A stretch of DNA of 64,000 nt from NCBI GenBank assembly GCA_020619395.1, contig GCA_020619395.1_4860.1; one strand, given 5' to 3'. Source of the DNA: a phage. The notes beneath the pieces are model-generated. The model had not been told where the DNA came from. It saw nothing but the letters and a program-made list of their open reading frames with translations, and ran no database searches. This document shows positions 2,075 through 28,742 of the stretch, in pieces. Numbering within the stretch: position 1 is the first letter of the stretch; the number at the start of each line of letters is the position of its first letter. A program made the position numbers and the translations under genes.

Positions 2075-2089
2075 GATAATATCTATCTC
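2075..2089. promoter_or_regulatory. promoter-like motif AGATAATATCTATCT
   Basis: intergenic, 36 bp from the start codon at 2039; same 15-mer as at 657. Confidence 0.4.
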
Positions 2090-6602: not shown

Positions 6603-8198
6603 TTAGCCCATCACCGCTTCCAACGGAATGCCTTCTTCATCATCCTCATCTGCTTCAATAAGGAACTGGTTCTGCATACTGATTAGCTCGTTATGTAAAA
6701 CCATGCCGTGTTCTACGCGGTCCACATCAGTAGAAGACATAAAGCCGTTATCTGGACGGAATTGGAGTGCCAACTTCATCTCAGTTTCATCGACTGGCAA
6801 ACGTACCTGGAACTGGTCGCCATCGAAATCTCCATTTGCCATCTTGATCACACGGTCAGAGATACGCAGCGAACACTGGTTAACATCGGTAACAACTTCA
6901 TCGATGTACAGCGTTTGAATAGACAACTGTACCAGCGTTGGGTTACGTAACGGTATGACCATGATCCCAAGACCGCCTGGGGATTCACGAATCAGTTCTT
7001 TAAAGATTTCATCTACAAGCGGGTCATACTGCATTGCCGCTTTCGCAACGATACGTTCACACTGCCGTGACGAATAACCGCGTCGTAGCAGTTTGTTCTC
7101 GATGTGGGTCGACATCAACCCAACCATCCAACGCCATGGTGCTTTTAACTTCCAGGCATCATGTGGTTCTGAGATAGGTGAGATGGTTGCACGACCACCG
7201 AACGGGATATGGGTAGAACCCAATTTCGCACGATAGTCACCCGGTTTACCTTCCATAGACTCACGACGGAAGTCCATGTGGAAGTACGTTAACTGACGGT
7301 TCGCCTTCAAAGCGCGACTAATCAGAAAACGTGGTTCGATCGCTTTACGCCGCGTATAGAGCAACGCGATATTTTTCACCGCATCAATAGCACCCGTGAA
7401 CACTGGGTCTACCATGACACCACGACGACCTTCCTCAGTAACGATAAGTTTAGAGGAGATTAGCGGTAAGTGTCTTGGGAAGAATGCGTGACGTTGCGTT
7501 TCGAATAGCTCCTTCCATTGTAAACGTAAGCGTTCACCTTCAGCGGCGTTATGCCGATTAGGTGCGAAGATTTCCTTCCAGGCTTCTGGCGTGGTAAGGA
7601 TGTTAAAGATACTAACGTGGTTATCAACCAGATTGCGCAAGCCACGAACGAAACCGTGTTCTTCCAATACACGTTTCACAGCATGTGCGCGTTTACCGTC
7701 TGGTTCTTCTATACGGTAATACGGGTCAATCATCCACATCATCAAGTCATTACCGCGTTCGATAGTGACCTTGTTACGTTCAAACTTCTTCAACTTGCTA
7801 TTAAAGAAAGCATTGAACATTGCCCAGAATCGTGGGTTGACGAAGTTACCCATTTCATCAGGTGCACGTAACCAGACATCGGATTCAATTCGATGTTCAG
7901 TTACAACATAGCCACACGTCGGACACTTACAACCGAGATTGTAACGATGCGCGATCGGTGCCGGACAATCCAAACTACAAATCGGTGCAGAGTTCAGTTC
8001 TTCGTCAACGATTCTGTTCTGTACCATGCGATCGATAAGTTCAGCAACTTCGATCGCATCCCCGTTAACGGCGACATCGTTAATAATAGTGGGTGGTTTA
8101 ATACCTTTGGCTGCAGCTTCTATTTGCAAATCGGACAAATAGTTATCCTGACTAACCAACCGGCCGGATATTCCGTAGAATTTTGGTACCTTTCTCAC
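6603..8198 (-). CDS. multisubunit RNA polymerase beta-prime N-terminal-like subunit (probable non-virion RNAP)
   Basis: Cys4 cluster CSLDCPAPIAHRYNLGCKCPTCG near the N-terminus; RNPTLVQLSIQ...MANGDFDGDQFQVRLP matches the bacterial beta-prime RQPTLHRLGIQ...NADFDGDQMAVHVP catalytic segment; GTG start with GAGG upstream. Confidence 0.7.
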   Translation of the reverse strand: MRKVPKFYGISGRLVSQDNYLSDLQIEAAAKGIKPPTIINDVAVNGDAIEVAELIDRMVQNRIVDEELNSAPICSLDCPAPIAHRYNLGCKCPTCGYVVTEHRIESDVWLRAPDEMGNFVNPRFWAMFNAFFNSKLKKFERNKVTIERGNDLMMWMIDPYYRIEEPDGKRAHAVKRVLEEHGFVRGLRNLVDNHVSIFNILTTPEAWKEIFAPNRHNAAEGERLRLQWKELFETQRHAFFPRHLPLISSKLIVTEEGRRGVMVDPVFTGAIDAVKNIALLYTRRKAIEPRFLISRALKANRQLTYFHMDFRRESMEGKPGDYRAKLGSTHIPFGGRATISPISEPHDAWKLKAPWRWMVGLMSTHIENKLLRRGYSSRQCERIVAKAAMQYDPLVDEIFKELIRESPGGLGIMVIPLRNPTLVQLSIQTLYIDEVVTDVNQCSLRISDRVIKMANGDFDGDQFQVRLPVDETEMKLALQFRPDNGFMSSTDVDRVEHGMVLHNELISMQNQFLIEADEDDEEGIPLEAVMG

Positions 8199-8212
8199 TC
8201 TGTCAACCTCAA

Positions 8213-8252
8213 CAAAAAAAGAGGGAAGGACGGAGGCGTTAGCCCCCGTCCG
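8213..8252 (-). terminator. intrinsic terminator
   Basis: GGACGG...CCGTCC hairpin followed on the minus strand by a 7-nt T-run, downstream of the gene ending at 8281. Confidence 0.55.
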
Positions 8253-8280
8253 TTTCCTAACTACTCAGTAACCGATTCGA

Positions 8281-10134
8281 TTACAGTTTGAAGTTGCTCA
8301 GAGACACGCCCAGACCGAAATCGGAACCGCTTGCAGACAGGCCGTTGCCAGACAGCGTGAAGTCTTCCCCACCGTTGTTGAAGAACAGAGAGGTCGCCAT
8401 CGTGTTGTAGGCATTTACACCAGTCATAGACCAGGTGCAGTTGTTACGGACGAAGTCCAGCAGGCATTTACCGAAGATCGGGTTGATAGCCATATCCAGA
8501 GATTCACCGGTAGCTTGCGGTGCTTTGGATGCGAACAGAGAAGCGGCCAGTTTCAGCATGTAGATACGCTGTTGACGCTCGTTCAGTTCACGGTGGCTGT
8601 AGGACTGTGCGTTCAGGTAGCTATAGACGTCGTTCGCGTTATCACCCAGTTTGGTAACAACGGAAATCAGGTCCATATCCTGGAAGCTACGTTTCTGTGC
8701 AGTACCGGTGTAAACACCGGAAACAGTCGGTACGGCTGCTTTCACGATGTGGCTGCAATGGATGGTACCATTGAAGGCATCGCCCAGCTGTGCTTTCAGT
8801 GCAGAAGCAAATACTGCAGTGAAGCTGGTCGCTGCAACAACTTCGCCGTTCTGATCACGCGGGGACATGGAATTCAGAATAGCGAGCAGCTGTTTCAGAG
8901 AGTTGTCGTAACCGACCGCAATTTCAGACAGCATAGTAGACAGACCACCCAGACCGTTACCGGCACGATGGCTAACTACCAGTGCTGCTTCACGCGGTGC
9001 GAACATATCCAGGCAACCTTCGATAGCTTCACGGCTACCGTCGATTTTGGATACATCAGGACGAGCGTCAGCACCCCAGGACAGGTATTCTGCCACACGG
9101 GAGAACTTGCGATCTTGTTTGTTCAGACGTTTCACAAACAGGTCACGCCAGCCACCGATTGCCGCGATTTCTGCAAATGCAGCCAGCAGCAGCAGTTGAC
9201 GTTCATACGGTGCCATTGCACCTTCAGTTTGAGAATCGACCAGACTTACTACGATTTCAGCCTGCAGCTGTTTCAGGTCGTAGACGCCGTTAACGACAGG
9301 CTTCTGACCGGTGAAACGCATGTTGACGAAACCAGTACCGGATACACGCGGATACACCTGTACCTGATTGGTGTCCAGCAGAGTCGGAGTGGCGTCGGAT
9401 ACGTTGCTTGGGCTGTGCTCAACGGTGATTGCGAAATCAGCACGTTGTGCGTGGCCGTTAGCATCCACAACCGCACCATCTTCCAGCGGCATTACTGCAG
9501 CCTGATAACGGTCATGCTTACGCAGGTTCAGCGTACCCAGGTAGCCTGCGATACGACCGAAGATGCCCATCATCATCTGACCCATCAGAGTACGTGCCCA
9601 CTCAGCATCCAGAACTTTACCCAGGTCTGGTACGGAGTTGATGATCATGAAGTTCGCATTGGTCAGACCATGCGCTTCCATGATGTTTTTCTGTACTACT
9701 GCCAGCACGTCTTTGTTGAACAGTTCAGTGATGGTGTAGTAGTCTTCCTGGCCGTTGTTGGTAGTTTCTTTCAGACGCAGAGACTGACCGCGTTCAAAGA
9801 AGATAATACCGTACAGCCAGTGGCCCTGCCATTGGCCTGCGACATACGCCGCGGAACCCATTTCGTTACCCACGCCGGCGATGGTGCCCCAGCGGAACGC
9901 GTTGAGGTATTCGTTGCTTTTCTTCAGCTCGTCCAGGAGGTTGACGAAGTGCATTGCATAGGTGCTGATGTTGCGGATGCCAAATGCGTTATCGAATTGG
10001 CTGACAGTAGAAGTACCCGGCACAGCAGTTTGCACTTTTACAGTCTCGTTGCCCAGACCGCCCAGTGGTGCGGTGTCTTGAGTCTGAGTGTTGTTCTGCT
10101 GAGCGTTGTTGTTAGAGTCAACGATTTTTACCAT
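8281..10134 (-). CDS. abundant early or structural protein (617 aa); candidate phage-nucleus shell protein (chimallin), alternatively a capsid protein
   Basis: stand-alone unit with its own promoter-like motif, conserved leader TTAAGGAATATTTAAA-ATG and terminator; adjacent to the beta-prime-like gene as in the phiKZ gp54/gp55 arrangement recalled from memory; no sequence motif confirmed. Confidence 0.35.
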   Translation of the reverse strand: MVKIVDSNNNAQQNNTQTQDTAPLGGLGNETVKVQTAVPGTSTVSQFDNAFGIRNISTYAMHFVNLLDELKKSNEYLNAFRWGTIAGVGNEMGSAAYVAGQWQGHWLYGIIFFERGQSLRLKETTNNGQEDYYTITELFNKDVLAVVQKNIMEAHGLTNANFMIINSVPDLGKVLDAEWARTLMGQMMMGIFGRIAGYLGTLNLRKHDRYQAAVMPLEDGAVVDANGHAQRADFAITVEHSPSNVSDATPTLLDTNQVQVYPRVSGTGFVNMRFTGQKPVVNGVYDLKQLQAEIVVSLVDSQTEGAMAPYERQLLLLAAFAEIAAIGGWRDLFVKRLNKQDRKFSRVAEYLSWGADARPDVSKIDGSREAIEGCLDMFAPREAALVVSHRAGNGLGGLSTMLSEIAVGYDNSLKQLLAILNSMSPRDQNGEVVAATSFTAVFASALKAQLGDAFNGTIHCSHIVKAAVPTVSGVYTGTAQKRSFQDMDLISVVTKLGDNANDVYSYLNAQSYSHRELNERQQRIYMLKLAASLFASKAPQATGESLDMAINPIFGKCLLDFVRNNCTWSMTGVNAYNTMATSLFFNNGGEDFTLSGNGLSASGSDFGLGVSLSNFKL

Positions 10135-10180: not shown

Positions 10181-10195
10181 AGATAATATCTGCCT
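10181..10195. promoter_or_regulatory. promoter-like motif AGATAATATCTGCCT, 47 bp upstream of the minus-strand start at 10134
   Basis: member of the recurrent AGATAATATC family in a divergent intergenic region. Confidence 0.4.
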
Positions 10196-10273
10196 GTAAT
10201 TTCATGGAATGCAAGTACGCCGTCGCTTACTTACAAGGCACATAGTCCAGACATTTCTCAGGAACTGTCACAT

Positions 10274-10288
10274 AGATAATATCAATCT
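10274..10288. promoter_or_regulatory. promoter-like motif AGATAATATCAATCT, upstream of the plus-strand gene at 10341
   Basis: second copy in the same divergent intergenic region. Confidence 0.4.
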
Positions 10289-10340
10289 GAGATATTTTTG
10301 ACTGTGACTGACTTCCTATGTGGAATCTAAGGAGTCTGCC

Positions 10341-11408
10341 ATGTTCAGCCAAGCCGAGTTAAACCAAGTGGCCATAAAGGGTCACAGCACGGACCCCTCC
10401 GCTATAACATTAGCGGCTCACGTAAAAAACAACAGCCAGCGTATACGCAACTACTACGAACAGCTTAATCGCAGTGCTGGTAATGGCCATTTGTTGCAAC
10501 AGGTGTTGTCTGCCATCGGCTATGCCGGTGAACCAGAGTACGAAGACATCGAATGGGCTTGCCGTCGCAAGCTTGTTCAGATTGGTAACGCCTTACGCTT
10601 GACGTCTGTTGGTGAGTACGGTCAAATCTTTAATAGCAAGTTTATCCAGGGCCAAGATGAGGTAATCTCTCTCGTAGCCCGCCCAGTAAATCCAGACCTT
10701 TCGTTCCGCGACTACACCCCCGCCCGTTACCTCTACCATGAGTATACCAACCTCAATTGGAAGTTCGGTGACGGACGGCCCCGAGGTGTTACGGTGATCG
10801 AAATCAACCTGGTTGCTTTGCTTTGGCAATATGTCAAAGGTCAGCAACACTACAGTCGCGGTACCGAACCTATTGCCACACCTGTGTATCTCCAACGACA
10901 TGTGATCTCTCGCATGTTGCCGAGCTACATGGATATCGCCTTTGTAAATATACATCGTGCGATAGCCTTCGGGAAAGAGATTGAACCGGATGAAACATTA
11001 CGTGTCATTCCTGTTCCACCGCTTCAAGCTTTAGCTGTGAAGCACGCAAAAGGCATCCGTAGTAAACTACTGGCTGCCAACCCGTTACCGGGACAAGTCT
11101 TAAACAACATCCCATTGTTCTTCCAACACCCTGATGAAGAAGGCCACACAGCACTGGAACTGATTGTCTTTCGAGAACCAGGTCAAACACTGCAGAACAC
11201 CTGGCACCAGAACATGGTGAACTGGTACTGGGCACTGTTTTGTCTTCAATACAACCAGGGGAATATGGAAAAGCATAAACGTACGATGTTGGTTGATTTG
11301 GCGCGTTATGTGGACTCTAAAGTCCTCACACGTCTGACCAAATCCTTCTATAACTTTATCCAACGGGATTTGATTATCCCGTTGACGACAGAGCTAGAAG
11401 AAAAATAA
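10341..11408 (+). CDS. hypothetical protein (about 355 aa)
   Basis: ATG at 10341 preceded by AAGGAG; the listed ORF begins at an upstream GTG; followed by a UUCG-loop terminator. Confidence 0.6.
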   Translation: MFSQAELNQVAIKGHSTDPSAITLAAHVKNNSQRIRNYYEQLNRSAGNGHLLQQVLSAIGYAGEPEYEDIEWACRRKLVQIGNALRLTSVGEYGQIFNSKFIQGQDEVISLVARPVNPDLSFRDYTPARYLYHEYTNLNWKFGDGRPRGVTVIEINLVALLWQYVKGQQHYSRGTEPIATPVYLQRHVISRMLPSYMDIAFVNIHRAIAFGKEIEPDETLRVIPVPPLQALAVKHAKGIRSKLLAANPLPGQVLNNIPLFFQHPDEEGHTALELIVFREPGQTLQNTWHQNMVNWYWALFCLQYNQGNMEKHKRTMLVDLARYVDSKVLTRLTKSFYNFIQRDLIIPLTTELEEK

Positions 11409-11763: not shown

Positions 11764-14043
11764 TTACTCCTCCGCTTCTTCCCCATCCTCTTCCTCTCCA
11801 TCACGTTCAGATTTCTTAACGTACTCGCCGCTACCTAATTCTTCCTTGACCGAGTCTACGGACTCGCCGTAGTAATCCGAAAGCAGACGAGTTCTGTTCT
11901 TGTCCATCATGAAGACACCCAGACATTCCAGGATGTGATAGTAAGGTTCTACTGTGGAGAATGCGCTTCGACGTGTGTCTGCAGCATCAATCAGCTCCGG
12001 AGGAATACCGAAGTTTTCCACCAAGAACTCTGGCAGTATCAGAGTACGATAGGTGCGATAGTTGTTCTCTTCGAACCACCGTGTTGCAGTGGTCTTAATC
12101 ATCGGGTCTTTAATGTTTTCCAGCCACTCTTTAACGGCTGTTTTGTTCTCCAGGTTTACCGGAAGTTTCACGGCGTCATAAGGCGGTTCGTCCAGGTAGC
12201 CGTACTTCGGTCCAAAGATGGCGTTGTACATGCGGTGATAGTGGTAGCTCTTTTCATCATCTTCAGAGTACGCACTACGGTCTTTGACGTTGGTTGTTTT
12301 CAGGTAGCCTGCTTTACCAGCGCGAATAGAATCCACCACAACGTGCTCAATTGCAGCAACCTTTTCCAGCAGAGGCAGAATCTTAATCTTGTCACCACGT
12401 GCCACGATCTCACAGAGTTCTTTAATCGTGCGTTTGAACTCTTTCATGACCACCGGAGGAATGTTCGACGTACGTAAAGACACGCCCTTAACTTCTAACT
12501 CAGGGTCAGACTTCAACTGCCCTTCCTGGCCAGTGATGATGGAGAAATAGTGTTTTGCTTTCGTGGTTAACGCAAAGGAGTCGAACTTAAATTCGTTCTT
12601 CATTGCGTACAAAAACAGACGCTCTTTCGCCACACCGATATTCGCCGACATACTCGCCATCAGATGACGTAAGTGCTGGGTTGCGATATAAATCATCGCA
12701 TCCGATACGCGCGTAGCTTCACGACCGTAATGTTGGCCGGTATACCACTGCGCCCACCACTGTGCAGTCATCATCGTGGAGTCGGTATCAGACACCACGC
12801 CGACACGACGAACCACGTCGGGCATCCTGGCAATGTTGATTGGCAGGTTTTTGGTGGTCAGGATATTACGAATCAAGCACGCGTACTTACCGATGGTTTT
12901 CTGCAGATACACAGCTGAGCGAATCAGCTCTTTGTATTTTTCCTGCTTATCCCACGGTTCCGCTTTGTTCGTGTTTTCGTCTTTGAGTTTAACGTCAGAG
13001 AACGACTTACCTAACGGCACGATATCAGTACGGAACTGCGAGATAATGATCTGCATGTCACCGTCGATAGAGCGCTCAGCGGCATCCCAATCAGTGATCT
13101 CGTCTTCCATCTCCTCGGCAATCAGCGCGCCGATAAATCCGCGCATGAATTCATCGTTGTATTTCGCCAGGTGGTAGAAGTCACCCATGTAGACAAACGC
13201 TGCACGTACCAGCGGGCTACAATTACCGACGTAGTGACGAATGAACTCCAGCCCTTCGTCGTTACGGAAGTAAAACTCTGCAGAGTACATAACCACTTCC
13301 ATAACCTCGTCCACTGTTGGGTAGTGGAGGTTATAGAGTTCCATACACTTCTTGAACTCCGCAAAGTTAGTCAGTGTACCGATAGAAAGTAGGTGGTCGA
13401 TAACACGGGACGGCGTGTCGTAGTGACGATTACCGCCCAGTAGACGTTCGTTGCCCGCGTTACCGAACGATGTAGCCGTACGGCAGGTTGACGTCAATAC
13501 AGAGTGCGAGGACTGGTTAAAGATTACCGTGTACGGTGATGAGAATGCACCCGACATTCCGTTGTTCAACGTCTTAACAGCGTTCTGTTCGTTCTTTTTG
13601 TTAATACGCAGAACTTCATTACCCGCAGCACCTGCTGCGTACATCTCTTTCTTAACGACCGCACGCTTACGCACGTTCTCTGCGGTAAATTCAGCAAGCT
13701 TAGAGCGCTTGACGTGCTCAGGCAGATAAAAGGTCAGCGACGGTGCAGAAATAATCTGCTTATCAATCACTGTACGGAACAGTTTATCTACCGTGGTGTA
13801 TTTTTCTTCGCGATCGCCGGTCTTTTGATTGCGCACCCACATCTTACACACGGGGAATTCGTGTACTAACTCACCACCAGGTTGGAACATTTCTTCGACC
13901 TGCTGTCGACAGAACTCCAAAGAATATTTCCCGTTGGTGACGGTATGAATGTAGAGCGCCAGTTGTTCGTAGTACGCATCGATAACGTCAATGTCGCGAT
14001 GATACTCGTCTTGACTAAGACGAAATGGTGAATTGTAGTCCAC
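11764..14043 (-). CDS. large hypothetical protein (759 aa), acidic C-terminus; function unassigned
   Basis: long ORF; has VVSDTDS and KTLNNGMSG segments but no coherent polymerase motif set. Confidence 0.6.
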   Translation of the reverse strand: MDYNSPFRLSQDEYHRDIDVIDAYYEQLALYIHTVTNGKYSLEFCRQQVEEMFQPGGELVHEFPVCKMWVRNQKTGDREEKYTTVDKLFRTVIDKQIISAPSLTFYLPEHVKRSKLAEFTAENVRKRAVVKKEMYAAGAAGNEVLRINKKNEQNAVKTLNNGMSGAFSSPYTVIFNQSSHSVLTSTCRTATSFGNAGNERLLGGNRHYDTPSRVIDHLLSIGTLTNFAEFKKCMELYNLHYPTVDEVMEVVMYSAEFYFRNDEGLEFIRHYVGNCSPLVRAAFVYMGDFYHLAKYNDEFMRGFIGALIAEEMEDEITDWDAAERSIDGDMQIIISQFRTDIVPLGKSFSDVKLKDENTNKAEPWDKQEKYKELIRSAVYLQKTIGKYACLIRNILTTKNLPINIARMPDVVRRVGVVSDTDSTMMTAQWWAQWYTGQHYGREATRVSDAMIYIATQHLRHLMASMSANIGVAKERLFLYAMKNEFKFDSFALTTKAKHYFSIITGQEGQLKSDPELEVKGVSLRTSNIPPVVMKEFKRTIKELCEIVARGDKIKILPLLEKVAAIEHVVVDSIRAGKAGYLKTTNVKDRSAYSEDDEKSYHYHRMYNAIFGPKYGYLDEPPYDAVKLPVNLENKTAVKEWLENIKDPMIKTTATRWFEENNYRTYRTLILPEFLVENFGIPPELIDAADTRRSAFSTVEPYYHILECLGVFMMDKNRTRLLSDYYGESVDSVKEELGSGEYVKKSERDGEEEDGEEAEE

Positions 14044-14092
14044 GTCTGGCCCCTTGGTTTTTTACTCAGCTATAAGACTTGCGGGATACGTG

Positions 14093-14128
14093 AAAAAAGA
14101 AAAAAAATAACCCACTCCGAAGAGTGGG
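14093..14128 (-). terminator. intrinsic terminator (CCCACTC-CGAA-GAGTGGG on plus, UUCG loop on minus, then T-run)
   Basis: hairpin 14111-14128 with adjacent A-tract, downstream of the gene ending at 14135. Confidence 0.55.
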
Positions 14129-14134
14129 CTTACT

Positions 14135-14545
14135 TTAACCGGCAATACTCTCAACGATTTCAAAATCGACGTCATTGAAACCATTGGCAGCCAGGGCACG
14201 TTTAAGGTCGTCAATCTCCTGTTTGTTATCCAGGGTGACGGTGAAGCGCACCTTCGTGTTTTCGATAATCTGAACATCACGAATCCAGGCATCGGCAGCG
14301 ACTTTTGGTTTGCCGTCAACACCTTTGAAAATCAGATACGTGTATTTGTTCACATTATCTTCTGGCTGGGAAACAATGGAAGAGTAGATATTCTTCTGCT
14401 CCGCCATCACATCCATATAACTTTTGGCCATCTCGTAGCCAACGCCGGTTGCCAGAATAATTACACGCGTCTCTTGCCCTTTCAAAGGGGTGTCGTAAAC
14501 AATGTTAACTTTTTGCCCAGCGACCAGTGTGCGTAAATCGAACAT
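14135..14545 (-). CDS. hypothetical protein (136 aa)
   Basis: ORF in a tightly packed minus-strand block. Confidence 0.55.
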   Translation of the reverse strand: MFDLRTLVAGQKVNIVYDTPLKGQETRVIILATGVGYEMAKSYMDVMAEQKNIYSSIVSQPEDNVNKYTYLIFKGVDGKPKVAADAWIRDVQIIENTKVRFTVTLDNKQEIDDLKRALAANGFNDVDFEIVESIAG

Positions 14546-15144
14546 TATTCCTCCTCAGGAACATCAATAAGCAGCCTCATATCCAAAGCATTGGTCACTG
14601 GTGTTTTCGGGAAGTCCACCTTGAGAACCAACGTACGGATAGCGCCATTATGCGCCTCTAAGAACATCTTCACCGGCTCAACATAATGCGCCATAACTGC
14701 CTCCGTTACGGCGGTCGCCATTAGATCCAACGTGTAGTGCTTGAGCGTGGCCCAGTGTGAGCTGTCTTGCTCTTTGTACATCAACGCTAAATCTAACAAT
14801 GGTGTCAGCCCGTTAAAATGTGACTCGGTGCTGGCTTCCATTGCAACATTAAACTTCCACCGACGGTACTCGTCAGTCAGTAACGTAAAGAAGTCGTGCA
14901 AGAACGTAAGGTCGGTGCGAGGCAACATGCAACGAAACTCGTACGTATAGCTAGTCAGTGTTTCACGTATAAGTTCGTGTATCTCGTCCTGGTCCAATTC
15001 TTTTACGGGTATCTCCACGGTGATACGCGGCAGGCGGACTACGGTGTCAACCACCAAATCCAAAAACCGCATACCGTCCGGAAGATACCCCACGACCCCC
15101 AAGTCCACATTAATCAAGTGGTTGGCGATCACCTTGTAGATCAT
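14545..15144 (-). CDS. hypothetical protein (199 aa)
   Basis: ORF; stop/start overlap with neighbour. Confidence 0.55.
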   Translation of the reverse strand: MIYKVIANHLINVDLGVVGYLPDGMRFLDLVVDTVVRLPRITVEIPVKELDQDEIHELIRETLTSYTYEFRCMLPRTDLTFLHDFFTLLTDEYRRWKFNVAMEASTESHFNGLTPLLDLALMYKEQDSSHWATLKHYTLDLMATAVTEAVMAHYVEPVKMFLEAHNGAIRTLVLKVDFPKTPVTNALDMRLLIDVPEEE

Positions 15145-15153
15145 TCGTACTCC

Positions 15154-15585
15154 TTAACATTCAACACAGATGAGTGCGTTGCCAATTTCATTCATAAGGA
15201 GTGAAACCTTTGTCTTTTTTGCTCCGTCTTCTGGAGTCAAGCCAGCCATGCCCCACACACGTTCTATCACGGAAAGGATTTCATAGAACCGAACATCATC
15301 CTTAATCCCACTGCTCATGCTGTAGCAGTTTAGAGGCAGCACCTTTTCAGTACCCCACATCCCGCGCAACTGTTCCAGTATCAACGCAGGGTCTGGGGGA
15401 ATAAAAGTAAGAAAGTTCTTACCCTTACCTAGCCCATTAACAATAGAACGAACCGTTAATTCGGCGTAACTGGCCAGAAACAAATAAGCGACAGCGGGCT
15501 CGATCTCGCTAGTATCAGCAATCTCGGCCCGTGCCAACAACGACTCATATTTGAAGACTTCGCCTATGGTCATGTACAGTTTCAT
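15154..15585 (-). CDS. hypothetical protein (143 aa)
   Basis: ORF in series. Confidence 0.55.
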   Translation of the reverse strand: MKLYMTIGEVFKYESLLARAEIADTSEIEPAVAYLFLASYAELTVRSIVNGLGKGKNFLTFIPPDPALILEQLRGMWGTEKVLPLNCYSMSSGIKDDVRFYEILSVIERVWGMAGLTPEDGAKKTKVSLLMNEIGNALICVEC

Positions 15586-16070
15586 TCGCAGATTAACACC
15601 ACATCGTTAAAACTATCACCTACATACGTTTGATATCGACCCGGATACAGCGACTCTATCAATCCAGCGAAACCAGTTAAGTTTGTTAACTCTTCGACCA
15701 ACAAACTTACCGCAGCGCCGAAGGCAGCTTGATGTTGTTCGGGCGAACCTTGTGCTGCCAGAAACGTCGTATCGACAGACATTTCTTTAGCGAACTGGTC
15801 AACGGACAGACCATCGGTCACCAACTCCCAATTGCCCAGAGGTTCAAGCGTGTCTTCCTGTAACAAATCAACCATTGTCGATGGGTCACGAGTTTTCACA
15901 CCGATGATATACGCAAACGCAAAACGTTGATAAAAATCACGTATCTGCGTTTCATCAATCTCCAGGTTACTGGCTTCCAATACACGCAATGCTGCTTCGC
16001 GAACGTGCTCGTAAAACCGAGTCGCGCTATATTGGTTCGCAATATCCGCCACATCAAACAGAACGCTCAT
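15582..16070 (-). CDS. hypothetical protein (162 aa)
   Basis: ORF; 4-nt overlap with neighbours. Confidence 0.55.
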   Translation of the reverse strand: MSVLFDVADIANQYSATRFYEHVREAALRVLEASNLEIDETQIRDFYQRFAFAYIIGVKTRDPSTMVDLLQEDTLEPLGNWELVTDGLSVDQFAKEMSVDTTFLAAQGSPEQHQAAFGAAVSLLVEELTNLTGFAGLIESLYPGRYQTYVGDSFNDVVLICE

Positions 16071-16576
16071 ACACGACCTCCGAGATTACCGATAAGCAAA
16101 TCGATAACAGGCAGAAGTTGTGGGGTGATTCGCTCGTACGCTTCCTGGCTGGCAAACTGTGGGAATTTATCACCACCGTTATAGTCTAATAAGAATTCGA
16201 CATCCGCCGGATTGCGCGTTGTGTATTGTGCACCGACCCAACGACCGTAGTGAGTAAACCAATAAGGAGACTGCGATACGGCGGTCATATACGCACGACC
16301 GATGTTTTGAATTGCGGTGCCGTAAGTGATTACTTGCTCATTTTCCAACACAACGCCGTGCGCATTCAGTGTACGAGAAACAAACCCAAAGGTATTGTTC
16401 ATCATAAACTTTAACTCACTACCAATGGTTCCACGTTCCACGAAGCTCATGGCGGTATTGATTATCGAGTTCAAATCGTCATTCACTTCGCGGAGCACAT
16501 CGTTTGGCGAAAACTCCGTTAACGGCCCAGCCAATAACTGATAGCCGGGGATATAAAAATGAGATCGCTCAATCAT
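16067..16576 (-). CDS. hypothetical protein (169 aa)
   Basis: ORF in series. Confidence 0.55.
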   Translation of the reverse strand: MIERSHFYIPGYQLLAGPLTEFSPNDVLREVNDDLNSIINTAMSFVERGTIGSELKFMMNNTFGFVSRTLNAHGVVLENEQVITYGTAIQNIGRAYMTAVSQSPYWFTHYGRWVGAQYTTRNPADVEFLLDYNGGDKFPQFASQEAYERITPQLLPVIDLLIGNLGGRV

Positions 16577-16976
16577 TGTAAGTAACCCCTGTAGTTAACA
16601 TTTTCCAGACACCGTCTCCTACATGCCAGAGGAGAAAGTCGGATTGTGGTAAATAAGTCATGTCCTCGTCGATTGCTTGCCAGATGCAATCGGTGTCCCG
16701 TATCAACAACTCAAATCGACAAAGAGCCCAGTATTTTGCCGACGTGGTTGGAGTAATGATTGGGTTATCGTGAACATACTCCATAAAGAACTGGCGTATC
16801 ATGCTATCGATAACGCCATATTTTTTCCGCAGAACATGCAACCGAACAATTTGCTCGATATAGTCGTCAAGCTCTACCGCAGCATCCTGGTAATCGATGC
16901 CGAGATTCTCTTTGACGAGTGCGGTGAGTCGGCAAGTCAATCGCACGAACTCAGTATAAACCGTCATCATAGACAT
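16569..16976 (-). CDS. hypothetical protein (about 135 aa)
   Basis: ORF in series. Confidence 0.5.
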   Translation of the reverse strand: MSMMTVYTEFVRLTCRLTALVKENLGIDYQDAAVELDDYIEQIVRLHVLRKKYGVIDSMIRQFFMEYVHDNPIITPTTSAKYWALCRFELLIRDTDCIWQAIDEDMTYLPQSDFLLWHVGDGVWKMLTTGVTYND

Positions 16977-17262
16977 CTGTTACCTTACGTGGAATGAAAC
17001 GGAGAATTCTGTCTGCTTGATTATAATGATACCGATACCCTTTCGGAGGAATGCCCATTTCCTCACAGATAGCACGATGAACGTGTGACGCGATGGTGTG
17101 GATTTCCCGCGAATGACTTCTGGGACGATAACACCTAACAATCAGTGAGACTGTTTCTGTGTCCCACGCACCGTGTTCTGTAAATGTCGGAATCATGTAT
17201 TCGAGCATACAGAGAATGATATGCTTCAACCCCGTGTTAACATCATACATGCTGAACATGAT
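16951..17262 (-). CDS. hypothetical protein (start moved to internal ATG, about 104 aa)
   Basis: the listed ORF overlaps its upstream neighbour by 146 nt; internal Met removes the overlap. Confidence 0.4.
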   Translation of the reverse strand: MMFSMYDVNTGLKHIILCMLEYMIPTFTEHGAWDTETVSLIVRCYRPRSHSREIHTIASHVHRAICEEMGIPPKGYRYHYNQADRILRFIPRKVTDVYDDGLY

Positions 17263-17272
17263 GTCGCTGGGG

Positions 17273-17836
17273 TCATTCAATATCCTGACGTATGCCGTCG
17301 AGGCAATGTGATCGATCAGTACCAGACGGACGATATCGTTTGTTTGGGAAGCATTGGCGGTAGTGGATGAATCTGATGTCTTCTCCAATTTGTAACTCCA
17401 GAGATTGCACCTGCCCACGACGGGTTATGTGTGGTTCCAGTTTAATCGTCGCATAACGATTAAACGGGTGTTTGGCGGCTTTCACAGCATTCTCCACAAG
17501 CGCATGGATACTGTCCAGGAAACTGTTGTAACAGTCTTCGAATGCTAATCCGATAAGATATTCGGTAGAACGTAAAATCGCTACGGTCTCTTTCGTCTTA
17601 TTAACCGGAGTACCCAAACCGCCACTGGAAACGTGTGTACGTTCCACAGGAACTGTTTTCGGTGGAAGTATGATCTGGTCAGCCACCAACATCATCGTGA
17701 GATTAAAAGCGTCAGTATAAGGTTCCAGCAAAGGTTCCATACGTGCATTAGGCATTTCCGGAACGGAGTAAAAGATATCTTCGAGCGCAGTGTGTAACAG
17801 TTGTACAGTTAACATCTCGCGTTCTTTTTGGCTCAT
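17273..17836 (-). CDS. hypothetical protein (start moved to internal ATG, about 187 aa)
   Basis: internal Met abuts the stop of the upstream gene. Confidence 0.4.
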   Translation of the reverse strand: MSQKEREMLTVQLLHTALEDIFYSVPEMPNARMEPLLEPYTDAFNLTMMLVADQIILPPKTVPVERTHVSSGGLGTPVNKTKETVAILRSTEYLIGLAFEDCYNSFLDSIHALVENAVKAAKHPFNRYATIKLEPHITRRGQVQSLELQIGEDIRFIHYRQCFPNKRYRPSGTDRSHCLDGIRQDIE

Positions 17837-18153
17837 CCGCAGAGCGGTAGCGTACTGGGAAGCATCGACAGGCCCCCAGAAGCTAGAATGAACCGCAGCT
17901 GGTTCGAGGTATATTCTGACCACGTTTGCACAACTCCATTTTTGTAATGAAAGGGATAGCTATGGTTTCGGCCCAACGCCGAAATAACAAACCACGCTTC
18001 CGTGCCAAAATAACTTTCGGCAATGCGTGTCCACTCGCGTGGAAACTCATGCGTGCCGGGATAAATGACTTCTTGTATCGCGCACAGTAACATGTCCGCA
18101 GGCACAATCTGTTCATTTGTCCCTGGAGAGAAATTAAAGAACATGCGCGTCAT
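17833..18153 (-). CDS. hypothetical protein (106 aa)
   Basis: conserved leader CTTAAGGAGCATTTC before the ATG; promoter-like motif 30 bp upstream. Confidence 0.55.
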   Translation of the reverse strand: MTRMFFNFSPGTNEQIVPADMLLCAIQEVIYPGTHEFPREWTRIAESYFGTEAWFVISALGRNHSYPFHYKNGVVQTWSEYTSNQLRFILASGGLSMLPSTLPLCG

Positions 18154-18183
18154 CGAGAAATGCTCCTTAAGGATAATTCACGA

Positions 18184-18198
18184 AGATAATATCTATGC
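18184..18198. promoter_or_regulatory. promoter-like motif AGATAATATCTATGC in a divergent intergenic region
   Basis: same motif family; sits between the minus start at 18153 and the plus start at 18317. Confidence 0.4.
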
Positions 18199-18316
18199 AA
18201 AATTTCTTCGAGTATGGTGCGCACATAAAGGTCGTAAAACGTATTTTAATGTCAGGCAATGGGATAGCATTACCCGATGGTATGAGTTGTCCTACGAGCT
18301 TCATAGGAGCCTTAGA

Positions 18317-19129
18317 ATGAATGTTATCGACTACTGTCTGCGTAAAATCAGACAGCATATTCCTGCCCCGATTCTACAGGCGGCTTTTGTTCCAGAAAAC
18401 CTCAAGTTACTGGGAATTGCAAGCTCTGTAGATAACGAAATCCAACAACGTGTTATTCGTGAGATTCTGGTCCCTGAAATCTCCAGAATGGGGCAGTATC
18501 AAGAAGTAGATTTGCAAGGTGTCCCTTGGGATAACGACACGCAAGATTATTTCAGTCGCGTGTATTATCTCGACGACATCAAAACAGGCGGTCGTCCTAT
18601 TCTGGATGCCCACATTTCTGTAACACCCGTTGCCGGACAGGCGTACACCATGCCTCCCGCAGGTTCATATCTGGACGGTGCCACCTCTGGCGTATTAGCA
18701 TCCACCCAGCAAGTGGTTGATAGTCAGTCGGCGATGCCACGTATCGCCTCACCAGAGGTCGAGGTACTCGGCCCGAATACCATCCGTATCAAAGACCCAG
18801 GCATGTTCGTTTACTCTACCAAACTCGTGGTGAAGTACGAACTATCCCAGGAGATGAACGAAATCAAACCAGCATTCTATCCGGTTGTAGGTGAGCTGGC
18901 AGTCATGGCTGTTAAGCAATATATTTACAACACCATGATCTTCGACATGGATTCCGGTAAACTGGAAAATGGTATGGAGTTCGGTGCCTTCAGAAACGTT
19001 ATTGAAGGTTACTCGGACGCGGGTCAAATGTTCGAAGACACCTTACCGAAAATGCAACGTTGTCTGGTCCACAACGACAACATCGGAAACCGTTGGAACT
19101 ACATGAACGGTGGACGCTTCAAGTCGTAA
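18317..19129 (+). CDS. hypothetical protein (about 270 aa)
   Basis: ATG at 18317 preceded by AGGAG; the listed ORF extends upstream across the promoter region. Confidence 0.55.
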   Translation: MNVIDYCLRKIRQHIPAPILQAAFVPENLKLLGIASSVDNEIQQRVIREILVPEISRMGQYQEVDLQGVPWDNDTQDYFSRVYYLDDIKTGGRPILDAHISVTPVAGQAYTMPPAGSYLDGATSGVLASTQQVVDSQSAMPRIASPEVEVLGPNTIRIKDPGMFVYSTKLVVKYELSQEMNEIKPAFYPVVGELAVMAVKQYIYNTMIFDMDSGKLENGMEFGAFRNVIEGYSDAGQMFEDTLPKMQRCLVHNDNIGNRWNYMNGGRFKS

Positions 19130-20142: not shown

Positions 20143-21090
20143 CTAACCAAACTGATTTTCATACGCACGGAGCCATTGCTCATGCGGGAATAAATTATAG
20201 ACCTCTTCGGGAACGTGTAACATCAGCCACCTCACGCCAATACTGCTCGCGTACCACGAAGCGTATGGATAGATTGAATCCTTCGGTGGTGCTAACGGTG
20301 ATGGTAACTGTTGAACATCGGTGACAGGGTTACCGATAACTTCACCGCCGGGTAGTACAGCCGCTAGCATCCAGGTCGTTGGGTAGTAATTACCGCTATC
20401 TGTTTTAGCCAGATAACGTAAGTCTAAGTTTTCTGGCTCGAGCTGTTTGCGTAACGTTAAGAACAGGCACAACTCAAACGGTGCGATGTTCAATCTGGTG
20501 TTCGGGAGACTGTGTCCTTTATACCAGTTTGCATAGCCTGCCTGGAGAGCGTGGATTGCCAGAATCGGTCTATCCACATCCACAGGTAACTGGAGCGGTG
20601 TAATGTTCAAATCAGCTACAGTTGGAAACATTACCGGTTCAGGATTGATAAGCTGGTTATACGCTTCCCGTAAACGATTCATCTTGATGCGCAATGCACC
20701 GTTCGTTAACATCAGCCTACGTCCGTGGTTTTCATCTGTAGCCCGTTCCGTAAAGAGTGCATCGCCGAAATGGCGAACGAATTCGATACTTAAGAACCTG
20801 GTGTGGTACGTAGGTGAGGTATACTCAATAAACTCGTTCTGTTGGAATCCGAAGTAGTGGAGCAATTCGCCGTTACCCCATTTGAACACAAATCGGAATT
20901 CGAAGTTCTTGTACTGTAGTGCATCTTTTACAGCACGTATCGCTTCCCAAGCGTCGAAATTCGTTCTGTATAACGAACCGAAAGGGAAGAATCTGCGAGG
21001 TAAGAAAGGTCGAATGCGGGTTGCTTCTGCGAGGCTGAAGCCATCCTGGTTTAATCCTTCAATAGCACTAGGATTACTTGGTCTGTACAT
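20143..21090 (-). CDS. hypothetical protein (315 aa)
   Basis: ORF with promoter-like motif upstream. Confidence 0.6.
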   Translation of the reverse strand: MYRPSNPSAIEGLNQDGFSLAEATRIRPFLPRRFFPFGSLYRTNFDAWEAIRAVKDALQYKNFEFRFVFKWGNGELLHYFGFQQNEFIEYTSPTYHTRFLSIEFVRHFGDALFTERATDENHGRRLMLTNGALRIKMNRLREAYNQLINPEPVMFPTVADLNITPLQLPVDVDRPILAIHALQAGYANWYKGHSLPNTRLNIAPFELCLFLTLRKQLEPENLDLRYLAKTDSGNYYPTTWMLAAVLPGGEVIGNPVTDVQQLPSPLAPPKDSIYPYASWYASSIGVRWLMLHVPEEVYNLFPHEQWLRAYENQFG

Positions 21091-21150: not shown

Positions 21151-21165
21151 GGTAATATCTATCTG
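21151..21165. promoter_or_regulatory. promoter-like motif GGTAATATCTATCTG (variant)
   Basis: shares the core TAATATCTATCT; about 60 bp upstream of the start at 21090. Confidence 0.35.
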
Positions 21166-27536: not shown

Positions 27537-28670
27537 TTACGTTTTGACTGACTGTGAAGGTACTCTGGCATCGTACATTAAAAAGATTTCCAGCAGGCTC
27601 ATACCCGTCGCGTAAAAGATTTGGTCTGTGATGACACTCACTAACGCATCTGGGTCAATCGCATCTACTGCAAAATCGCTGTCGAACTGCCAGAACTCGA
27701 CATCATCCCCCTTTTCAAACGTCGCGGCATACAATCCAGGTTTCACACCACGCCGGAACGAAAAGAGTTTTGCGTCAGACTCAGTGTCCTTACCATAAAT
27801 TTCCCCGTCGGTCCGTGTGATCGCTGCGCGTTTACACCGAGTTACCGTAAGGAGCGCACGGTTTGCAGATGCTTGCGATTTAAACGGATAGGGGCCATCG
27901 TATGTCGGGACATTCTGGTCGCCTAAGGCATCAAGTGCCTTACTCCGATAGACTACCGGAGACTTAAAATTACACAGTCGATTCCCTTCGGTAAACATTG
28001 TGTATTCGACCTTAACGTCGGTACCGACGAGGTCAGCAGGGGACACTTTGTAGTGTGCTAACTGTCCCTGCACGCGGCGAGAGAGCATCGATGCCAGGAA
28101 GGTATGGTTGCCCTGTGTACGCAAGACATAACCGAACTCTGTGCAGTCGACGATACGAGCGTCCATACGTCGTACAGGCTCTAGCCGGTAAGTCACATCA
28201 TTCGCTTCGATAAGAAACTGACTGATGCTAACATCGCGAGATCGATGTTTGATTGCTTCAAACACTTCACCCGCTTCCAGAATAGCTGGTTCAATTACAT
28301 TGACCTGGAATGGGAGGGGTTTCGTCGGCCGTTGACCCATTGTTGTCACTGTCATCGAACGTAGCCACGGATCGTCCTCGCTAGGGTCATTGGAAAGCCA
28401 ATGTGTTAACCAGCGAGAAAGGTTCTGAGGAATCGTTGCGGTTGAATATAAAATCACGGTACCCATTATACCTGCATCAGCTAGCAAGCGCGCGAGTACC
28501 GTGTTCATCGAATCGTATTTGCCATTTCGAAGAATAGGTAATCCCCCGACCTGGACCATTTCGCAGATGACGCCGTGCGGCAGCACCCACATCTTCACTT
28601 GTTGAGCAGAATGTATCTGCCCAGTGCGCAGCTTTTCTTGCCACGCGTGCTTACGTTCATAGTTCATCAT
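27537..28670 (-). CDS. hypothetical protein (377 aa)
   Basis: long ORF. Confidence 0.6.
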   Translation of the reverse strand: MMNYERKHAWQEKLRTGQIHSAQQVKMWVLPHGVICEMVQVGGLPILRNGKYDSMNTVLARLLADAGIMGTVILYSTATIPQNLSRWLTHWLSNDPSEDDPWLRSMTVTTMGQRPTKPLPFQVNVIEPAILEAGEVFEAIKHRSRDVSISQFLIEANDVTYRLEPVRRMDARIVDCTEFGYVLRTQGNHTFLASMLSRRVQGQLAHYKVSPADLVGTDVKVEYTMFTEGNRLCNFKSPVVYRSKALDALGDQNVPTYDGPYPFKSQASANRALLTVTRCKRAAITRTDGEIYGKDTESDAKLFSFRRGVKPGLYAATFEKGDDVEFWQFDSDFAVDAIDPDALVSVITDQIFYATGMSLLEIFLMYDARVPSQSVKT

Positions 28671-28742
28671 TGGGTAAAATCTCCTTCAGGTATACTCTCA
28701 GTATGATAACATATATCCGTAAATTTTTAGAGGTTTAGTGCC

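Follow-up and report, generated by a model that had tools for sequence, protein, structure and literature searches.

The minus-strand block at positions 14135–18153 of the window (the whole 64,000-nucleotide stretch of phage DNA analysed) appears from its sequence to be one transcription unit, gp9 to gp17, in which nine translationally coupled genes are preceded by a promoter-type motif and followed by a terminator. Taken as a whole, the chances are about even that this is an early operon of SPN3US-like phages whose eight proteins, gp9–gp16, serve nucleus-based replication. The whole window resembles Salmonella jumbo phages, with 99.5% identity to SPLA1a and 97.6% to SPN3US, which bears out the jumbo phage assignment of the first-pass annotation and, by sequence, places the source as an SPN3US-like, nucleus-forming Salmonella jumbo phage (Seoulvirus, Chimalliviridae).

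Nine tightly packed genes between gp8 and the polymerase gene

The block consists of nine co-directional, tightly packed genes that correspond to SPN3US gp17 to gp9 (Table 1). It had been described as about ten small minus-strand genes of 100–220 codons with stop/start overlaps. The block is real and the size range is right, with proteins of 106–216 aa (102–145 aa for gp11, according to the start chosen), but the genes number nine, not ten. Most junctions do overlap, by 1 to 91 nt; gp15 and gp16 are separated by a 9-nt gap, and the overlaps are of 1, 4, 4, 8 and 26 nt, with the largest, 91 nt, at gp9/gp10. The gp10/gp11 junction depends on the gp11 start: ATG 17259 would leave a 13-nt gap and TTG 17388 would give a 116-nt overlap. 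The TTG is preceded by GGAG, conservation sets in before ATG 17259 is reached, and most relatives keep a TTG or GTG in alignment with 17388. A programmed frameshift from gp9 into gp10 was rejected because a start codon is kept at the gp10 start in 14/14 phages and the N-terminus of gp10 folds into the model. The gp9–gp16 proteins are predicted to be soluble, acidic to near-neutral (pI 4.2–6.3) and free of transmembrane segments.

Table 1 Features of the operon and its flanking genes, in window coordinates
Feature	Coordinates	Strand	Description
gp8	18317..19129	+	Flanking gene, divergently transcribed; DUF7484 (Pfam PF24302, E 1e-96); homologue of phiKZ core gene gp042
Candidate early promoter core	18185..18196	-	Virion-RNAP type; 12-nt AT-rich ATAGATATTATC, ending 31 nt upstream of the gp9 ATG
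Leader of gp9	18154..18184	-	Short; Shine-Dalgarno AAGGAG read from sequence
gp9	17833..18153	-	106 aa; phrog_9874; orthologues in 13/13 relatives
gp10	17273..17923	-	216 aa from GTG 17923; phrog_8359; 91-nt overlap with gp9
gp11	16951..17388 (at minimum 16951–17259)	-	102–145 aa; phrog_8134; start uncertain
gp12	16569..16976	-	135 aa; phrog_9510; fastest-evolving member
gp13	16067..16576	-	169 aa; phrog_8024; best conserved among gp9–gp16
gp14	15582..16070	-	162 aa; very acidic, pI 4.2; phrog_8126
gp15	15154..15585	-	143 aa; phrog_9694
gp16	14545..15144	-	199 aa; phrog_8007; stop codon shares 1 nt with the gp17 start
gp17	14135..14545	-	136 aa; SH3DP (SH3-fold, phage DNA polymerase-associated); homologue of phiKZ gp049
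Intrinsic terminator	14099..14130	-	Ends the operon; stem 14109–14130, UUCG loop, then T tract
gp18	11764..14043	-	Flanking gene; divergent family B DNA polymerase (Pfam PF20286, E 4e-284)

A candidate early promoter and a conserved terminator

The region 18154–18316, earlier called promoter-like, does contain a conserved 12-mer, ATAGATATTATC, which is the best-conserved block when the gp8/gp9 intergenic regions of 13 phages are aligned; the GGAG of the gp9 leader is kept in 13/13. At up to two mismatches the window has 14 matches to ATAGATATTATC against 3.0 expected, a count that none of 100 shuffles reached. Further sites lie upstream of the chimallin ORF, gp5, ORF 405–2039 and ORF 27537–28670, and in relatives the same motif precedes gp9, ChmA and gp5. 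The window scan found no copy within 14135–18153, which argues for a single promoter for the block. A scan for sigma-70 promoters was uninformative (8 sites against 9.5 expected).

AT-rich motifs of this type are described as defining virion RNA polymerase (vRNAP) early promoters (PMC7598289). Since ATAGATATTATC is shared with the chimallin gene, it probably serves the injected virion RNA polymerase as an early promoter, and the early expression proposed in the first-pass annotation is plausible. The early operons of RNAP-encoding jumbo phages (phiKZ, AR9 and others) likewise have a conserved AT-rich motif of about 10–12 nt before several operons, including that of chimallin; the ATAGATATTATC sequence itself is specific to the SPN3US-like clade. 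The chimallin ORF of the window (617 aa) was identified via RefSeq gp244 and PMC9365700 (Laughlin et al. 2022), and BLASTP gave no similarity between it and phiKZ chimallin.

At the other end of the block, a terminator had been claimed at 14093, and the hairpin and T tract found there are well supported. The stem, of 9 G+C-rich base pairs, lies just past the SH3DP stop codon in 13 phages, where at least four stem sequence types all keep their pairing through compensatory changes.

gp17 is an SH3DP encoded next to the divergent polymerase

The last gene of the block is neither an ORFan nor devoid of recognisable motifs, as all members had been described. Its product matches Pfam PF20287 (SH3DP) with E 3.2e-35 and 120.9 bits (cut-off 25) over profile positions 2–122 of 122. 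This full-length match far over the cut-off and the position before the PF20286 polymerase gene, the defining neighbourhood, are shared with the SH3DP family and phiKZ gp049; gp17 differs in ending a nine-gene operon and in being parted from the polymerase gene by the terminator. Matches to the family HMM occur in nearly every Chimalliviridae locus, and the SH3DP gene lies immediately upstream of the polymerase gene here, with a like arrangement in most of the loci fetched; Derbicusvirus phages have two or three additional genes between the two. An interaction of SH3DP with the polymerase is, in the literature, a gene-neighbourhood prediction only. Knock-down of phiKZ gp049 impairs plaque formation, and the phiKZ core genes 042, 049 and 050 are required for it (PMC12571901).

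gp9–gp16 are strictly conserved within one group of phages

Orthologues of all nine block genes were found in 13 other phages in unchanged order. For every gene pN is well below pS, and dN/dS is 0.06–0.5 where dS is not saturated; the nine genes are real and under purifying selection. Related loci were collected with the polymerase alignment as query, the SH3DP alignment being too divergent. The nine families proved all-or-none, being present in every locus that has a polymerase at least 69% identical and enough upstream sequence. Block content, order and gene length are fixed in five named genera and in further metagenomic loci, with no member gained or lost among phages of Salmonella, Escherichia, Proteus, Erwinia and Cronobacter, and the gene directly upstream of SH3DP in the SPN3US-like clade is always gp16. 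Among gp9 orthologues N72, G73, S79 and Q85 are invariant, and gp14 relatives measure 168–196 aa, mostly 181–196. The block proteins evolve 2–10 times faster than the polymerase, a speed that also fits host-interacting roles; gp12 has a dN of 0.50 against SPAsTU.

All-or-none conservation in a fixed order would suit a set of subunits that form one machine with SH3DP and the divergent polymerase, for example in place of a clamp and clamp loader, both of which are missing from these phages. Such a machine could also account for the translational coupling, including the 1-nt stop/start overlap of gp16 and SH3DP, and for an operon that includes SH3DP and lies directly upstream of the polymerase; Iyer et al. 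report that divergent family B polymerases of this type have no classical sliding clamp. However, most of the gp9–gp16 families are missing from other Chimalliviridae that bear the same polymerase and SH3DP, whereas a core component of the replisome ought to occur family-wide. Profile searches, and the folds of gp10 and gp13, gave no fold or sequence resemblance to replication proteins, and the additional Derbicusvirus genes indicate a loose linkage. We regard a replisome machine as improbable. As judged from their sequences, gp9–gp16 are eight unrelated families limited to related phages of several genera; paralogy inside the block was ruled out, as all-against-all BLASTP and hhalign found none.

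For gp9–gp16, which show no recognisable motifs, the ORFan label of the first-pass annotation holds only in that no function is assigned; orthologues occur in several phage genera. They had no significant match in Pfam, NCBIfam, PADLOC or the PDB, none of these libraries being dedicated to anti-defence. PDB profile searches and Pfam scans with 8–10 diverse members per family gave no match for any of the eight families, and every PHROG matched carries no assigned function. AlphaFold modelled gp10 and gp13 with high confidence, and neither model had a convincing solved relative.

These results also bear on the idea that the block encodes virion or assembly proteins, for which nothing positive was found and which we consider highly improbable. 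Pfam gave no structural family for gp9–gp16, the PHROGs matched were all function-unassigned, and the promoter motif is common to chimallin. phiKZ gp043–gp048 carry no ‘structural’ note, although several neighbouring phiKZ genes do. Genes gp9–gp18 are absent from the main text of two SPN3US virion papers, and the supplementary files of a third contain none of six searched terms from gp8–gp18. The ORFs do not, then, all belong to virion structural families, the outcome that had been named as refuting a host-takeover role, and that role is not refuted on this ground.

The same slot encodes import factors in phiKZ

The block occupies a slot, conserved family-wide, between the phiKZ gp042-like gene and SH3DP. 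With the gp042-like gene detected by jackhmmer, the layout of gp042-like gene, slot, SH3DP and polymerase was seen in 66 loci. [quoted passage not shown] Of the roughly six phiKZ slot genes, just these two are known to encode import factors. By locus tag, no mention of PHIKZ043, 046, 047 or 048 was found in the literature.

The two slots are alike in lying between a divergent gp042-like core gene and SH3DP (gp049 in phiKZ), followed by the polymerase (gp050) and then chimallin, and in encoding small, lineage-restricted proteins without predicted function. They differ in gene number and spacing: the six or seven phiKZ genes are separated by intergenic gaps, and the block has eight tightly overlapping genes before SH3DP. 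Homology of gp9–gp16 to the import factors was not detected: with any of the eight families, hhalign probability reached at most 0.8% for the Imp2 family and at most 5% for Imp4, and cluster-level hhalign was also empty. The other phiKZ slot proteins gave no sequence-profile link either. When the gp13 model, the only one compared, was searched against BFVD, PhiPA3 gp044 (an Imp2 homologue) ranked 25th, with a non-significant E of 1.7 and a TM of 0.31. We treat the slot shared with Imp2 and Imp4 as an analogy, not as homology. A candidate link between the gp10 and phiKZ gp43 families (63% via an intermediate cluster) fell to 7% with a merged profile and was dropped, as was one between gp16 and the SH3DP-adjacent cluster of the pVa-21 clade (1.2%).

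In Vibrio phage pVa-21 and in metagenomic phages related to it, the slot contains genes remotely homologous to gp10 and gp13, in the same relative order. The pVa-21 slot differs from the block in having only five annotated genes, with long intergenic gaps, and the other six families were not detected.

A possible role in nucleus-based replication

A motif of vRNAP early type would have the operon expressed while the phage nucleus is being built. The first-pass annotation had seen in the block an early host-takeover or anti-defence cassette. In a cassette of that kind each protein would neutralise or redirect a host factor soon after injection. An early-type promoter would fit such a cassette, as would small, acidic, soluble proteins that carry no enzymatic motifs, change fast relative to the polymerase and belong to families confined to one phage group, gp10 and gp13 having no known fold. 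Even so, no member could be linked to such functions: Pfam, NCBIfam and PADLOC gave no match, a weak test in that none of them is dedicated to anti-defence. Accessory counter-defence loci are typically patchy, whereas the content, order and gene lengths of this block are fixed across five host genera. The block is also set among core genes (gp042-like, SH3DP, polymerase and chimallin) and not in a variable genome arm, and it is predicted to be co-transcribed with a polymerase-associated protein. We therefore think the takeover or anti-defence reading rather unlikely.

The strict conservation points to a function in nucleus-based replication, and by analogy with phiKZ we tentatively propose that gp9–gp16 help to establish DNA replication in the phage nucleus. 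In the favoured specific version they would be import adaptors particular to the clade and to their cargo, or accessory factors that reside in the nucleus; they would then be functional counterparts of phiKZ Imp2 and Imp4, whose genes occupy the same slot. Some may also interact with SH3DP and the polymerase. A bolder version, which we rate as distinctly unlikely, is that gp9–gp16 form a self-contained, clade-specific module of previously unseen folds that would license cargo such as replication proteins into the SPN3US-type nucleus, or form a complex with SH3DP and the clamp-less polymerase, and that arose in the same slot independently of phiKZ Imp2, Imp4 and Imp5. If that were true, each chimallivirus lineage would evolve nucleus-access factors of its own in the slot beside the polymerase, making it a general hotspot.

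A nucleus-forming jumbo phage has to select the proteins that pass into its protein-shelled nucleus, and cargo-specific import factors are so far known only from Pseudomonas phages. With a promoter of the shell-protein type, SH3DP as its last gene and the slot of Imp2 and Imp4, the operon offers eight conserved candidates for equivalent or related functions in SPN3US, a genetically tractable Salmonella phage. For the clade, the analysis also adds a well-supported terminator and a candidate consensus for early promoters. Should the proteins be directed at the host instead, they would still make up a compact early gene set with unrecognised folds.

A conserved nine-gene block between gp8 and the DNA polymerase gene

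Over positions 14000-18400 the sequence shares 99.5% identity with Salmonella phage SPLA1a and 97.6% with SPN3US; phages with Salmonella, E. coli or Proteus as isolation host carry near-identical copies. Judged by this near-identity to SPLA1a and SPN3US, the window is part of a Seoulvirus genome, that of a nucleus-forming jumbo phage (Chimalliviridae). The block genes are gp9-gp17 by the numbering first used for SPN3US, with the DNA polymerase gene gp18 downstream and gp8 upstream on the opposite strand. The first-pass annotation had described about ten consecutive small genes on the minus strand; the uninterrupted run was recovered, but it comprises nine genes. Gene starts were revised by alignment with 13 relatives, and two were moved. 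A GTG or ATG lies at the position of the gp10 GTG in every phage of the alignment, and the 29 residues that it adds are conserved and confidently folded in the structural model. The alignment places the start of gp11 upstream of ATG 17259; the likely start codon is TTG 17388, which has a GGAG in front of it.

Coordinates of the block genes and associated elements
Feature	Position	Strand	Remark
gp17	14135-14545	-	SH3DP
gp16	14545-15144	-
gp15	15154-15585	-
gp14	15582-16070	-
gp13	16067-16576	-
gp12	16569-16976	-
gp11	16951-17388 or shorter	-	start uncertain
gp10	17273-17923	-	GTG start 17923
gp9	17833-18153	-
Terminator hairpin	14109-14130		directly after gp17 stop
ATAGATATTATC-type motif	18185-18196	-	upstream of gp9
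ATAGATATTATC-type motif, two copies	10182-10193, 10275-10286	-	upstream of 617-aa ORF 8281-10134 (chimallin)
ATAGATATTATC-type motif	21151-21162	-	upstream of gp5 (20143-21090)
ATAGATATTATC-type motif	2075-2086	-	upstream of ORF 405-2039
ATAGATATTATC-type motif	659-670	-	internal to ORF 405-2039
ATAGATATTATC-type motif	28705-28716	-	upstream of ORF 27537-28670

Most of the nine genes have a Shine-Dalgarno sequence. The tight packing with stop/start overlaps noted earlier was borne out by measurement: gp9 and gp10 overlap by 91 nt from the GTG start, as in most relatives examined, and the other junctions, gp10/gp11 aside, comprise overlaps of 1, 4, 4, 8 and 26 nt and one 9-nt gap. The gp9/gp10 overlap (17833-17923, minus strand) is dual-coding, gp10 being read in the -1 frame with respect to gp9, and about the first 30 nt carry conserved residues in both frames (T77-L86 of gp9; P8, H12 and W16 of gp10). 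Compared with SPAsTU and Stratton, non-synonymous differences are far below synonymous ones, which indicates that all nine genes are genuine. Where dS was not saturated, dN/dS was 0.06-0.5 for the block genes and 0.035-0.07 for the polymerase, and dN of the block genes was 2-10 times that of the polymerase.

Two annotation details were also observed. The gp14 protein has 162 aa here and in SPN3US versus 184-196 aa in most other genera, owing to an internal deletion of about 22 residues in an acidic, poorly conserved stretch. A 354-aa ORF (18065-19129, plus strand) over-extends gp8 across the promoter region (18065-18316); the conserved gp8 gene encodes 270 aa (DUF7484) from a start at 18317.

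A terminator and a shared upstream motif delimit the block

The hairpin directly after the gp17 stop has a 9-bp G+C-rich stem, a UUCG loop and a following T run, and each of the 13 relatives examined has this element after its SH3DP gene. The stem exists in at least four sequence versions that all keep pairing, so comparison lends good support to a functional terminator, as the first-pass annotation had proposed. Between it and the polymerase start (14044-14098, minus strand) lies a further conserved element, TTTTTTCACG...GTCTTATAGC(T/A)GAG at 14069-14078, without the early motif described below; possibly the polymerase gene has its own, non-early promoter here.

A promoter-like region had likewise been suggested upstream of gp9. 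The best-conserved part of this 163-nt gp8/gp9 intergenic region is the 12-mer ATAGATATTATC, ending 31 nt before the gp9 ATG. With up to two mismatches allowed, the window contains 14 occurrences where 3.0 would be expected, a count that no shuffle out of 100 attained, and the window-wide scan found no copy inside the block. The copies at gp5, chimallin, ORF 405-2039 and ORF 27537-28670 share a downstream (G/C)TGA. Strict matches were found upstream of orthologues of gp9, the 617-aa ORF and gp5 in SPN3US, phiEaH2, Huxley, Wellington-like and other loci, albeit not at all three genes in every locus. The 617-aa ORF corresponds to the SPN3US protein tagged gp244 in RefSeq, identified by Laughlin et al. 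as the diverged chimallin, or phage-nucleus shell protein (PMC9365700). The distal chimallin motif (10272-10286) is nearly palindromic and so also reads as a plus-strand motif towards the divergent gp21-like gene (10320-11408), whose positional counterpart in phiKZ is gp052, annotated as a head protein.

According to a review (PMC7598289), every RNAP-encoding jumbo phage carries a conserved AT-rich motif of about 10 nt upstream of its early operons, which has proved to be the early promoter of the virion RNAP wherever tested; such a search does not reveal middle or late promoters. The ATAGATATTATC-type copies together form a candidate early-promoter consensus for SPN3US-like phages. Since the motif is shared with the chimallin gene and fits that description, we infer that gp9-gp17 would be an early operon.

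Families and folds of the block proteins

The block had been described as ORFans without recognisable motifs. This does not hold for gp17: a match to Pfam PF20287 (E 3e-35), the 'SH3 fold domain associated with phage DNA polymerases', covers its full length. The neighbouring gp18 has a match to PF20286, the family of divergent family B polymerases. The pairing of these two genes was described by Iyer et al., who proposed that the SH3 protein may be a polymerase subunit (PMC7824862). A physical interaction between the two is predicted. Antisense knock-down of gp049, the phiKZ homologue of gp17, impairs plaque formation (PMC12571901).

For gp9-gp16 the description stands as regards known domains, but these proteins are not without family: they match PHROGs, all of unknown function, and have orthologues in several genera. 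They had no match in Pfam, NCBIfam or PADLOC, nor did 8-10 diverse orthologues per family in Pfam, nor the family profiles among all PDB sequences. They have no transmembrane segment and a pI of 4.2-6.3, and a search for paralogy among block proteins found none. AlphaFold2 models of gp10 and gp13 were confident (input alignments of 17 and 19 sequences), both mixed alpha/beta with a similar order of elements, namely an N-terminal strand and a helical bundle, followed by a beta-hairpin and a long helix. Weak matches to globin-like sensor, RsbR N-terminal and pXO2-61 domains are also common to both. This likeness of the models may reflect an ancient, as yet unproven duplication invisible in sequence. 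Against BFVD, the gp13 model retrieved its own orthologues and a 145-aa protein (E 1e-3, TM 0.56-0.64), probably the counterpart from Vibrio phage pVa-21; PhiPA3 gp044 ranked 25th (E 1.7).

One lineage's filling of a family-wide slot

In a tblastn search with the concatenated proteins, the whole block was colinear in five genera: Seoulvirus, Erskinevirus (phiEaH2, Stratton, Asesino), Machinavirus, Wellingtonvirus and Derbicusvirus (Phobos, Derbicus, CR5). Mean amino-acid identity over the block drops to about 29%, while the genes hardly vary in length. The polymerase served to recover 79 IMG/VR loci, in which the nine family HMMs were all-or-none, being present in every locus with a polymerase at least 69% identical and enough upstream sequence, and essentially absent elsewhere; SH3DP was found in almost all. 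When 1.84 billion representative proteins were searched exhaustively by HMMER with a gp13 profile, no more than 18 clusters came up. In the next clade out (pVa-21 and metagenomic phages), only gp13 (BLAST linkage and alignment) and gp10 (hhalign 94% and shared motifs) have detectable relatives, in unchanged order.

In 66 loci one layout is kept: a phiKZ gp042-like gene on the other strand, then a slot spanning 3.7-8.6 kb, then SH3DP and the polymerase. The block is thus one lineage's filling of a family-wide slot. In Derbicusvirus, two or three extra small genes lie between SH3DP and polymerase (locus positions ~8090-9700), with the terminator still directly after SH3DP. Several SPFM phage records (SPFM1, 6, 8, 10, 12, 14, 15 and 20; GenBank LR5359xx) match the block only as many short pieces, with annotated proteins truncated or chimeric; this looks like frameshift-rich assembly rather than biology.

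These patterns bear on what the block does. The anti-defence or host-takeover role proposed at first pass would suit early expression, which motif sharing supports, and small, fast-evolving proteins without known folds. A host-directed role nevertheless seems unlikely, as gene content is invariant across phages of five host genera and the block sits among core genes, apparently co-transcribed with SH3DP. Gene coupling and the all-or-none pattern could instead indicate a dedicated polymerase-associated replisome complex, which we consider less probable still given that most members are absent from other phages with the same polymerase. A virion role has nothing in its support and, even pooled with every other explanation, is very improbable.

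In phiKZ the slot is filled by gp043-gp048. Genetic selection showed that orf47 (Imp2), itself imported, is needed to import the RecA-like gp152, and orf48 (Imp4) to import host TopA; both are reported only from Pseudomonas phages (bioRxiv 10.1101/2024.03.27.586873), and neither gene bears disruptive transposon insertions (PMC12676376). Comparing every phiKZ slot protein with every gp9-gp16 family gave profile-profile probabilities of at most 5%, so gp9-gp16 should not be classed as homologues of Imp2 or Imp4, and the comparison with these two is one of slot position. Many phiKZ-like phages (IMG/VR loci L050-L097) carry tandem paralogues of 120-150 aa in the slot part nearest SH3DP (clusters C9, C10, C14, C33 and C34; hhalign 95-98%), whereas the SPN3US clade has none.

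Because the phiKZ slot holds Imp2 and Imp4, the most economical reading is that gp9-gp16 would be lineage-specific nucleus-access or replication accessory factors, genomic position being the evidence for nucleus access in SPN3US. The reading that we favour, at about even odds, is that of an early operon devoted to nucleus-based replication, in which import adaptors would be the foremost mechanism. The block exists as described and is nothing unusual in kind: a probable early operon of a jumbo phage, whose genes are already in the databases as 'hypothetical'. It is better defined than the first-pass annotation could see, and offers a concrete, testable link to phage-nucleus biology.
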